Positions 3,001 through 6,000 of a DNA stretch of 64,000 nucleotides are shown piece after piece; position 1 is the stretch's first letter; every line of letters begins with the position of its first letter. Made by a program: the position numbers. The stretch comes from Escherichia coli. Lineage in GTDB: Bacteria > Pseudomonadota > Gammaproteobacteria > Enterobacterales > Enterobacteriaceae. The stretch is taken from the NCBI RefSeq assembly GCF_001677475.2, contig NZ_CP012498.1. One strand, given 5' to 3'.

Positions 3001-6000
3001 TGTTACAGGCTCTGGTTAATGAACCACGGCAGCCTGACGGCTGCAAATTGAAAACCGCCCTGTTCTGAACTGCACCCCAAAAGTTGGACACTCAACGAAG
3101 TAAGGTGCAGTTTTTTATGAGTAAATATTCTCTCAGCTTTAAGCTTGAGGTTGTGCAGCACTATCTTTCCGGCATGGAAGGGCAGAAAGCGACTGCAAAG
3201 CGTTTTGGTATCGATCACAGTGCCGTTCGTAAGTGGACTGCTGCCTGGAAGCTTCATGGCGAAGCCGGACTTACCACCCGGCATTTCGCCTATTCTCCCG
3301 TCTTTAAAGAGTCCGTTATCCTGCATATGCGTGAGCACCGGTTGTCTGTTCGCGAAGTCTGTGCAAAATTCACTATTCCGGCTTTCTCCACGGTCCTTCT
3401 GTGGGAACGCCTGTATGATGAAGGGGGATTAGAAGCCCTCACTGACAGCCGACGCGGGAGAAAAACGATGCCAGAACGCCCTGAAAATAACCCGGCACCT
3501 TCTTTACAGGCTCCTCTTAACCATGATGAACGAGAGGAACTTGAACAACTGCGTGTTGAAGTGGCTTATCTAAAAAAGTTGCAGGCCTTGCTCAGGGAAA
3601 AAAGCACGTCAAAACGCGGGATAAAACGCAGATCGTGAATGAGTTAAGGCCGGACTTCCCTCTTGCGCGCTTGTTAAAAGCGGCAGGGCTGGCGAGAAGT
3701 ACGTTCTACTGGCAACTGGCGAGCGGTAAAAAACCAGACAAATATGCCGATGATAAGCGGCAGATTTTAACGCTGTTCCATAAACATAAAGGACGGTATG
3801 GATACAGGCGAATCACGCTGGCTATCCGCCGGGAAGGAAGCTTACTGAACCATAAAAAGGTTCAGAGGTTAATGAAGGCGTTAGATTTAACCTGCTGTAT
3901 CAGAAGGAAGAAATACAACTCTTACAGAGGCCGGTATGGGAAAGTGGCGGGTAATGTGCTGAACCGGCAGTTCAGTGCGGATAAGCCCAACCAGAAGTGG
4001 GTAACAGATGTCACGGAATTTAAAATCAGCGGAGAAAAACTGTATCTGTCCCCCGTTCTGGATCTGTATAACGGAGAAATAGTTGCGTATCAGATGGCGT
4101 CCCGTCCTCTTCTGTCGATGGTGGATGACATGCTGTTGAAGGCTGTATCTGTACTGGGTAAAGACGAATACCCGCTGCTCCACTCAGATCAGGGCTGGCA
4201 ATATCAGATGGCGCATTATCAGAACCGGCTTAAGGAGGCTGGTCTGAAACAGAGCATGTCAAGGAAGGGGAACTGTCATGACAATGCGGTGATGGAAAGC
4301 TTCTTCGGCACGCTGAAATCTGAGTGTTTTTACCTGATGGAACACAAGAATATCAGCGAGTTGCGCATGGCTATCGATAATTACATCCACTATTACAACC
4401 ATGAAAGAATAAAACAGAAACTGAAAGGCCTGAGTCCGGTAGAGTACCGAACCCAGGCCCTGATAGCCGCTTAATATAAACCGTCCAACATTATGGGGTC
4501 AGTTCAGTTCGTCCTGTTGTTGCCGCACGCCCCGCAGAATATGTATGCTCTGAGGACCTGTTTTATTAAGGACTCATCCCCTTATGTTGACCCGCAAAAG
4601 TATCGATACAGTTCTGTTCTCTGTTGGTGCTGAGAAGTTCTCACAATGTGAATGGGACTGGATGAAGATGCTCAAACCCATGGCCCCACCACCTGCGATG
4701 GTCGCGGCCTCCATCCTGGAGCACCGTGGTGATACAGCAGCCCTTACCCTACTACAAGATACCGGGGGTTAATCCGTCCTCATGTTGTCCGGTTTTACTC
4801 CCCGTCCGCTGAAACGCCTGTTCAGTGAGTTAGCTGGCCTGGATGTAATCACTCGTTCAATTCAATTCTCTTAATGTGGGAAAATTTCCGAATTCCAAGC
4901 GGCCCCCTCAGTACACGCTCGTAAGAGCCCCTGACGGCCCGCTAACGCGGAGATACGCCCCCGATTGAGGCCGGGACCACTCCGACCGCGCACAGATGCT
5001 CTGTCATGGCTGAAAGCGGTTATGGCTTAGCAGGATGGGGATGGGTAAGGTGAAATCTGTCAATCAGTACCAGCTTAAGCCGGGCTTCGGAGGTTTGGCA
5101 ATGTGCCATATGAAACAGTTGAGTGCCGCCTTCCATGCCGCTGACGCAGCATCCTGGTGACGATATCTGAATCGCTATATACTGTGTATATACACGGTAA
5201 TGACGAGGTGATAAATGGCACAGGTTAATATGAGTTTAAGAATTGACGCTGAACTGAAGGATGCTTTTATGGCCGCTGCAAAAAGCATGGATCGTAATGG
5301 CTCTCAGTTAATCCGGGATTTTATGCGCCAGACCGTTGAACGGCAGCATAATACCTGGTTCCGTGACCAGGTTGAGGCAGGTCGTCAGCAACTCGAACTC
5401 GGTGATGTGCTTCCCCATGATATGGTCGAATCCTCCGCTACTGCATGGCGGGATGAAATGAGCAGGAAGGTTGCCGGTAAATGATGGATATATTCTGGAC
5501 CATGCTGGCCAGCCAGGACAGGAAGCACATTCGTGAGTACATTGCGGAGCAGAACCTGATGTCCGCCATTGAACTGGACGAACGGATTGGTTATTCAGCC
5601 AGCAATCTGGCCGGGCAGCCGTATAAAGGCCGCAACGGTCGTGTGGAAGGTACCCGGGAACTGGTTATTCACCCGCATTTTGTTCTGGTTTATGAGGTCG
5701 ATAGCCAGTGGGGAAAAGTGTATATCCTGCGCGTATTGCATACCGCACAGAAGTGGCCATAGAGGGGCTGTCCGGATATAAAAACGTCTGACGGAGATGC
5801 AATAACCATGAATAATGATGATCTGGCTACCAAACGTGCGCAGACTATTGCTGAAGATCGCCGGATTTTTGTTTGCGAGGTTTAGCTGAACGGACCGTAT
5901 AACTAACTGAAAGACAATGACATTGTCTGTTTTTATAACGGTAATCTCAGGCCATGACAAGCCGCAGCCGTCAGGCTGCCTACTCGATTTCTTTTCTGAT

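Follow-up and report, generated by a model that had tools for sequence, protein, structure and literature searches.

Two toxin-antitoxin operons of probable ParD/ParE type in an IS-rich Escherichia coli virulence plasmid

A 64,000-nucleotide stretch of Escherichia coli DNA (NCBI RefSeq assembly GCF_001677475.2, contig NZ_CP012498.1), which is called the window below, contains two small gene pairs that resemble plasmid-borne toxin-antitoxin (TA) modules of the RelE/ParE superfamily and that we refer to as TA1 and TA2. Both are already known, TA1 as an experimentally studied system and TA2 as a routinely annotated one. TA1 is YacAB, alias ParDE-I, which is found on IncI and IncF plasmids. ParDE-I was described on the IncI1 plasmid pJIE512b (Kamruzzaman & Iredell 2019, PMC6614396), and vectors that are otherwise unstable were completely retained when they carried it (PMC6614396). 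Its toxin, ParE-I, inhibits growth, an effect from which cells are rescued by ParD-I in trans, and it becomes non-toxic when truncated at the C-terminus; it causes filamentation like that seen with ciprofloxacin and induces recA and lexA, that is, the SOS response, and the module reportedly increases tolerance of antibiotics and heat (PMC6614396). According to these authors, ParE-I is only 15% identical to the ParE of RK2 and lacks the RelE residues R61, R81, and Y87 (PMC6614396). For TA2, the best solved relative of both proteins is the ParE_SO-CopA_SO pair from prophage CP4So of Shewanella oneidensis (7ETR, 6IYA; PMC8706911), in which the antitoxin CopA_SO binds inverted repeats of its own promoter (PMC8706911).

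Other described systems are more remote. Both modules share with RK2 ParDE and Caulobacter ParDE1 (3KXE) the operon logic, a probable ribbon-helix-helix (RHH) antitoxin, a predicted ParE-fold toxin, and a presumed role in plasmid stabilization, although sequence identity to these systems is very low. The closest solved relative of YacB, the TA1 toxin, is ParE2 of the PaaA2-ParE2 pair of E. coli O157:H7 (5CW7, 5CZF). ParE2 sits in a three-gene paaR-paaA-parE system with an antitoxin, PaaA2, that has no RHH DNA-binding domain, whereas YacAB consists of two genes, and its antitoxin is RHH-like. With the RelBE systems of E. coli K-12, P307, and the Shigella sonnei invasion plasmid pINV, the two modules have in common the superfamily fold, the antitoxin-first operon, and an RHH-type antitoxin, and the RelBE loci of P307 and pINV likewise adjoin a plasmid origin. 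However, the toxins in the window bear no significant sequence relation to RelE and appear not to conserve its catalytic residues, and the TA1 homolog causes DNA damage rather than translation arrest.

We consider it very likely that both loci are type II ParD/ParE post-segregational killing operons embedded in an insertion sequence (IS)-rich, mosaic virulence plasmid. Each is a pair of small, co-directional, antitoxin-first genes on the + strand. In TA1, the antitoxin gene yacA (parD-I; 5215-5484) encodes 89 amino acids with a probable N-terminal RHH DNA-binding domain and a predicted C-terminal toxin-binding region, and it is followed by the toxin gene yacB (parE-I; 5481-5762; 93 amino acids), their stop and start codons overlapping by 4 nt (ATGA). 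In TA2, a 94-amino-acid antitoxin of the CopG-type RHH class, similar to ParD and CopA (37106-37390), is followed by a 91-amino-acid toxin (37390-37665), with an overlap of 1 nt (TGATG). These coordinates and overlaps agree between the open reading frame (ORF) listing and the raw sequence, so that two antitoxin-first pairs with stop/start overlaps of 1-4 nt, as proposed by a first-pass annotation of the window, are indeed present. The same annotation had assigned both toxins to the RelE/ParE superfamily, and this is borne out by whole-profile matches to the Pfam family ParE_toxin (PF05016, gathering score 23), which YacB matches at 61.1 bits (E 1.6e-16, profile positions 1-89 of 89) and the TA2 toxin at 59.4 bits (E 5.3e-16, positions 1-88 of 89). 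The TA2 antitoxin matches RHH_1 (PF01402, gathering score 20.5) at 38.7 bits over residues 14-51, and these PF05016 and RHH_1 matches are far beyond chance. All four proteins are identical to deposited E. coli proteins, each found on 32-101 contigs, and all four occur together on one contig of 213,847 bp (ANO92432/33 and ANO92462/63).

TA1 is identified as ParDE-I because the published primers match, the toxin gene agrees in length, and the promoter region is nearly identical. Specifically, the ParDE-I primers ParE-F and ParE201-R (PMC6614396) match exactly at 5467-5486 and 5662-5680, while ParD-F matches at 5195-5214 with 2 mismatches, and yacB, at 282 bp, has the published length of the ParE-I gene. 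In a DNA search with a 651-bp query, TA1 matched 2,311 plasmid records with identities of 80-97%; identity reached 90% or more in 2,236 of these records, and at least 80% of the query was covered in 1,596. The genes are named yacA and yacB by RefSeq, the exact match of the antitoxin carries the NCBI name "type II toxin-antitoxin system antitoxin YacA", and the DNA is about 96-97% identical to common plasmid alleles, with proteins that differ from the cluster consensus at a few amino acids. Vector stabilization, toxicity, rescue, filamentation, and SOS induction were shown by others, on a homolog of about 96% nucleotide identity and for TA1 only. As in the ParDE-I modules of pJIE512b and IncF plasmids, an 89-amino-acid antitoxin is paired with a 93-amino-acid toxin, and the operon occupies the same place after a conserved non-coding element near the origin, which is discussed below. 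Unlike these modules, TA1 is detached from its replicon, with an IS3-family element and a gentisate operon where repA would be, and the downstream gene yacC is truncated. Of yacC, which encodes a 3'-5' exonuclease and normally follows yacB, only the first ~50 nt are kept (5808-5857), and the homology of the region to IncFII plasmids stops at about 5857. The nearest relatives of the plasmid (e.g., NZ_CP042296.1 and NZ_CP012501.1) retain only the 3' end of yacB (5622-5762 compared), and an intact yacAB therefore sets this plasmid apart from its nearest kin.

By sequence comparison, TA2 is a distinct and widespread CopG-RHH plus ParE module. At least 1,196 plasmid records carry it, with its products annotated as a CopG-family RHH protein and a RelE/ParE family toxin, and in IncK2/Z and IncI1/B/O plasmids it follows directly after repA and the origin. 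Its toxin family comprises 877 clusters at 50% identity (E of 1e-3 or below), and relatives with 75-80% identity are present in Aeromonas, Photorhabdus, Pseudomonas, and others. Both TA2 proteins match the partner chains of the same solved complexes, namely 7ETR (ParE_SO-CopA_SO) and 6XRW (ParDE-type). TA2 and ParE_SO-CopA_SO each combine a CopG-type RHH antitoxin and inverted-repeat operators, putative in TA2, with a toxin of alpha1-alpha2-beta1-3 ParE architecture, which for the TA2 toxin is a low-confidence prediction, as is its probable lack of the RelE catalytic residues. However, the sequences are distant, the match being strong by profile only; TA2 is plasmid-borne and proximal to an origin, whereas ParE_SO-CopA_SO resides on a prophage; and the candidate operator repeats of TA2 are of the type TAATCA/TGATTA rather than GTANTAC. 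An identification of TA2 with the "RelBE" of Shigella pINV was considered and rejected, as the pINV version is a true RelBE of the P307 type and RelE finds nothing in the window.

Profile searches were also made to place each toxin in the RelE or the ParE subfamily, a check that the first-pass annotation had asked for, and both toxins fall on the ParE side. For the TA2 toxin, a profile built from a divergent alignment (61 sequences, 37-70% identity) was searched against the PDB, where it matched ParE_SO at E 2.7e-11, Mesorhizobium ParE at about 1e-7, ParE2 of E. coli O157 and ParE1 of Pseudomonas aeruginosa both at 2e-6, ParE1 of Mycobacterium tuberculosis at 8e-6, and Caulobacter ParE1 at 0.011. 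Seven ParE structures, ParE_SO among them, were matched at E of 1e-5 or below, and the first RelE, RelE3 of Methanocaldococcus (M. jannaschii), appeared at E 1.6. YacB matched O157 ParE2 (5cw7) over its full length, at E 9e-8 as a single sequence and at 1.1e-10 with its family profile, which also matched Mesorhizobium ParE (5ceg) at E 0.0024; no RelE, YoeB, or HigB was matched by the YacB profile in the PDB. As a negative control we used K-12 RelE, whose sequence was validated at 190-195 bits against RelE entries of the PDB. In hhalign comparisons with this RelE, probabilities were 4.3% for the TA2 toxin and 0.8% for YacB, with no significant alignment, and tblastn with RelE found nothing in the window. 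A tentative, non-significant alignment sets RelE K52, K54, R61, and R81 opposite V60, R62, E69, and E89 of the TA2 toxin, which ends before the position of RelE Y87. Profile comparison therefore places both toxins in the ParE branch rather than the RelE branch of the superfamily. The two toxin families align with each other in hhalign (probability 97.6%, E 3.4e-12, 19% identity), a relation for which BLAST found no link, and on these profiles they are genuine, if distant, homologs. Because the toxins are only 19% identical, TA1 and TA2 are probably insulated from each other.

The antitoxins differ in how clearly they can be classified. The first-pass annotation had called both RHH proteins, and the call holds for TA2, whose antitoxin is by its profile matches a clear CopG-type RHH protein; besides RHH_1, it matches CopA_SO (7etr_A, E 1e-3), ParD (6xrw_B, 0.037), and the RHH domain of PutA in the PDB, and its exact match is named "ribbon-helix-helix protein, CopG family" by NCBI. 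For YacA, what was found is remote homology below threshold. Weak matches across the YacA family (n = 18) fall in residues 6-44 and are almost exclusively to RHH families, including CcdA in all 18 members, RelB in 17, RHH_1 in 15, and RHH_9 in 13, and the top matches of the family profile in the PDB are ParD, CopA, RelB, DinJ, ArtA, and PutA RHH domains, at E 0.1-1. More distant relatives of YacA carry the NCBI name CopG-family RHH. YacA is therefore very probably an RHH protein, judged from matches that lie below curated thresholds. In hhalign, the YacA family and the TA2 antitoxin showed no significant relation (probability 1.3%).

Inverted repeats lie upstream of both operons. The putative promoter/operator of TA1 (5157-5199, + strand), which corresponds to the published ParDE-I promoter region, contains a perfect palindrome, TATATAC-TGT-GTATATA (5176-5192), which is overlapped by an imperfect 13-nt palindrome (5180-5199). 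The surrounding sequence (5151-5220) is almost identical to what was published as the putative promoter region of ParDE-I, palindrome included (Fig. S4 of PMC6614396), and both palindromes lie inside that region. The putative TA2 operator (37064-37091, + strand) consists of the inverted repeats ATGTAATCA/TGATTAAAT and TAATCAC/GTGATTA, 15-40 nt upstream of the antitoxin start. These palindromes are the expected operators of RHH antitoxins, to which, by analogy with CopA_SO, the antitoxins would bind. A simple scan for the sigma-70 consensus found no site upstream of TA1 or TA2, and the promoters are therefore putative.

Taken together, we hypothesize that each module works as follows. The first gene would give rise to a small, dimeric RHH antitoxin, which would repress the operon by binding to the inverted repeats that overlie its promoter, while its C-terminal half would wrap around and neutralize the toxin, the product of the second gene, whose translation is coupled to that of the first. 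Upon loss of the plasmid, the unstable antitoxin would no longer be made, and the stable ParE-type toxin would be freed and would halt growth. The freed toxin would most probably poison DNA gyrase, leading to DNA damage, SOS induction, and filamentation, and plasmid-free segregants would thereby be eliminated. Within this scheme, we infer the gyrase target, the binding of operators, the lability of the antitoxins, and any activity of TA2.

Several observations weigh against this scheme. A literature search with RefSeq accessions and descriptors as queries brought up no experimental work on modules of the TA2 type. Presence of such a module is no proof of a role in maintenance, as RelBE adds nothing measurable to the maintenance of pINV in S. 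sonnei. The window copy of YacA has no Pfam match above threshold (RHH_1, 15.9 bits), its best NCBIfam match is RelB/DinJ at 24.7 bits, below the cutoff of 45.65, and its AlphaFold model is poor (predicted local distance difference test, pLDDT, 68.8), with a disordered N-terminal strand and no fold match in Foldseek. The AlphaFold2 model of the TA2 toxin is likewise poor (pLDDT 60); this low-confidence model has the order alpha1-alpha2-beta1-beta2-beta3 with no C-terminal helix predicted, and its Foldseek matches are non-significant (E of 0.085 or above), although the ten best are all ParE toxins. In addition, YacB scores 30.9 bits on the NCBIfam model TIGR02385, "mRNA interferase toxin, RelE/StbE family", and so passes its cutoff of 27.9; several database entries label YacB by that name or as "RelE2".

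The alternative that survives best concerns the target. The toxins might have the ParE fold and yet act on something other than gyrase, or not on gyrase alone, and kill by another route. The evidence on ParDE-I consists of SOS induction and filamentation rather than gyrase inhibition (PMC6614396). O157 ParE2, to which YacB is closest among solved structures, is reported not to inhibit gyrase, and ParE2 of M. tuberculosis is said to bind GyrB only weakly (cited in PMC8706911). However, most characterized ParE toxins inhibit gyrase through GyrA (PMC8706911), and SOS induction with ciprofloxacin-like filamentation, as caused by ParE-I, is what gyrase poisoning produces. We regard a different target as unlikely, if far from negligible.

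It is also conceivable that the modules are inert passengers, that is, relics of decayed replicons which no longer contribute to plasmid maintenance. Both stand without repA between IS elements and duplicated segments, and the survival of only the yacB 3' end in the nearest plasmid relatives fits such decay. The databases hold many truncated, frameshifted, or IS-fused variants of yacA and yacB, so that the module is often disrupted, and the yacAB of Shigella flexneri pINV, which has a frameshift in yacB, is reported to be inactive. By contrast, all four ORFs in the window are full length and identical to proteins found on dozens of contigs, and the start/stop coupling is preserved, as are the Shine-Dalgarno region and the published promoter/palindrome region. 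An intact toxin gene is hard to separate from its antitoxin, so that such pairs tend to stay functional. We do not favor decay, because the four ORFs and the regulatory region are intact, and consider it quite improbable.

That one or both toxins are ribosome-dependent mRNA interferases of the RelE type, in RelBE-like modules that arrest translation rather than disturb DNA topology, is very improbable: the TIGR02385 score, the RelE/StbE labels, the RelB/DinJ match of YacA, and the likeness of the ParE and RelE folds (PMC8706911) speak for it, but the significant solved relatives of both toxins are ParE toxins without exception, RelE was matched by the TA2 toxin no better than at E 1.6 and by YacB not at all, the hhalign and tblastn comparisons with K-12 RelE are blank, the RelE catalytic residues are unmatched and both proteins are shorter than the Tyr87 position in the tentative alignment, and ParE-I, which reportedly lacks R61, R81, and Y87, causes SOS induction and filamentation of the ciprofloxacin type (PMC6614396). 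Given all of these other results and the DNA-damage phenotype of ParE-I, we read TIGR02385 as a superfamily-level model.

The ParD/ParE reading thus labels two plasmid-maintenance modules as ParDE-type and not RelBE-type, which adds little beyond annotation. The remaining interest is modest and lies in the real target of these ParE toxins and in the function of the TA2 type, which is present in more than 1,000 plasmids.

Directly upstream of TA1 is a non-coding element of about 250 nt (4907-5153, + strand), which we call the ori-distal element, and a second copy (36797-37045, + strand), about 88% identical to the first, lies directly upstream of TA2. A third copy is found at about 10427-10673 (+ strand). 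A 32-nt core of the element occurs three times in the window, against none expected by chance, and a small ORF within the element shows no conservation from copy to copy. At least 5,000 plasmid records contain the element, and in all eight plasmids that we examined, which represent IncFII, IncI1/B/O, IncK2/Z, IncI-gamma/K1, and IncI2, an IncFII-family repA is located about 600 bp upstream of it. Copy 1 maps to 2154-2410 of plasmid p111 (NZ_CP023367.1; L001), about 600 bp downstream of repA, and copy 2 to 1453-1714 of another reference plasmid (L003), about 580 bp downstream of an IncK2/Z repA. No repA precedes any of the three copies in the window. TA1 and TA2 are therefore ori-proximal cassettes still joined to about 250 nt from the distal part of the ori region of IncFII-family replicons that have lost repA, and the absence of repA supports a mosaic of plasmid fragments.

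What follows the element depends on the plasmid, and may be yacAB, the TA2 type, another RelE/ParE pair, pemIK, or a DUF1778 protein with a GNAT acetyltransferase; in one plasmid an IS200/TnpB element follows. Since the cassettes differ, the region beside these origins is a hot spot at which TA cassettes are interchangeable. Plasmid p111 has the element a second time, directly before a DUF1778 plus GNAT acetyltransferase TA pair (5990-7048).

We suspect the element to be the primase "G-site" of these replicons. When it was examined as a "G-site" single-strand initiation signal, its single-stranded DNA folded no more stably than shuffled sequence (z 0.41 and -0.02), and the idea gained no support. 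The element has no match in Rfam, and no paper on its nature was found in the library searched; only its location some 600 bp downstream of repA is established. The element might serve as a recombination "landing pad" by which TA cassettes are swapped beside the origins of the IncFII and IncI complexes. That the element has this role and that, in addition, YacB and/or the widespread TA2 toxin act on a target other than gyrase is a combination that we consider rather unlikely.

An IS3-family element, consisting of an HTH_28 ORF and an rve integrase ORF (3084-4474, + strand), separates the TA1 replicon remnant from genes of the gentisate pathway (1-2889, + strand), as these are annotated in related plasmids. 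The latter comprise the 3' end of a gentisate dioxygenase gene and genes for an FAH-family hydrolase, a maleylacetoacetate isomerase, and a 3-hydroxybenzoate 6-monooxygenase. An IS remnant and a MarR-like ORF, identical in the two places, precede both TA2 and the third ori-distal copy. They belong to a segmental duplication of about 1 kb (9652-10690 and 36022-37045), which includes the IS-remnant ORF and in which the 110-amino-acid MarR-like ORF (10014-10346 and 36384-36716) is identical; the copy at 36 kb runs on into TA2, whereas the copy at 10 kb does not.

As a whole, the window matches IncFIA/FIB virulence plasmids of Escherichia that are 167-242 kb long, IS-rich, and equipped with enterohemolysin and heat-stable (ST) enterotoxin genes. 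Together with the replicon remnants that lack repA, these relatives fit the earlier suggestion of a large, stably maintained plasmid or a mosaic of plasmid fragments. The third addiction module that had been named, ccdAB, is likewise present: in tblastn with the F-plasmid sequences, ccdA (23504-23722, + strand) is 98.6% identical to CcdA and ccdB (23724-24029, + strand) 99.0% identical to CcdB, both over the full length. A screen of the other small co-directional ORF pairs in the window revealed no further protein TA pair. At least three independent type II addiction systems are thus present in this virulence plasmid, and they help to explain its stable carriage.

A few other features of the window were recorded. 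A gene for the heat-stable enterotoxin STa lies at 11243-11476 on the - strand; the C-terminus of its product reads NTFYCCELCCNPACAGCY, and the gene is named sta1 in the related plasmid p1RM9088. Domains of group II introns (Rfam RF00029/RF02012) are matched on the - strand at 53114-53190, 57725-57873, 61337-61413, and 63485-63634, and these four matches indicate two intron copies. A full-length Rfam match to isrC (146.6 bits; 9433-9555, - strand) overlaps the 5' end of an IS3-family transposase ORF (9240-9551). Finally, an ORF at 60426-60866 (+ strand) contains an Antirestriction domain (PF03230, 92.5 bits), which suggests a segment of a conjugative leading region.

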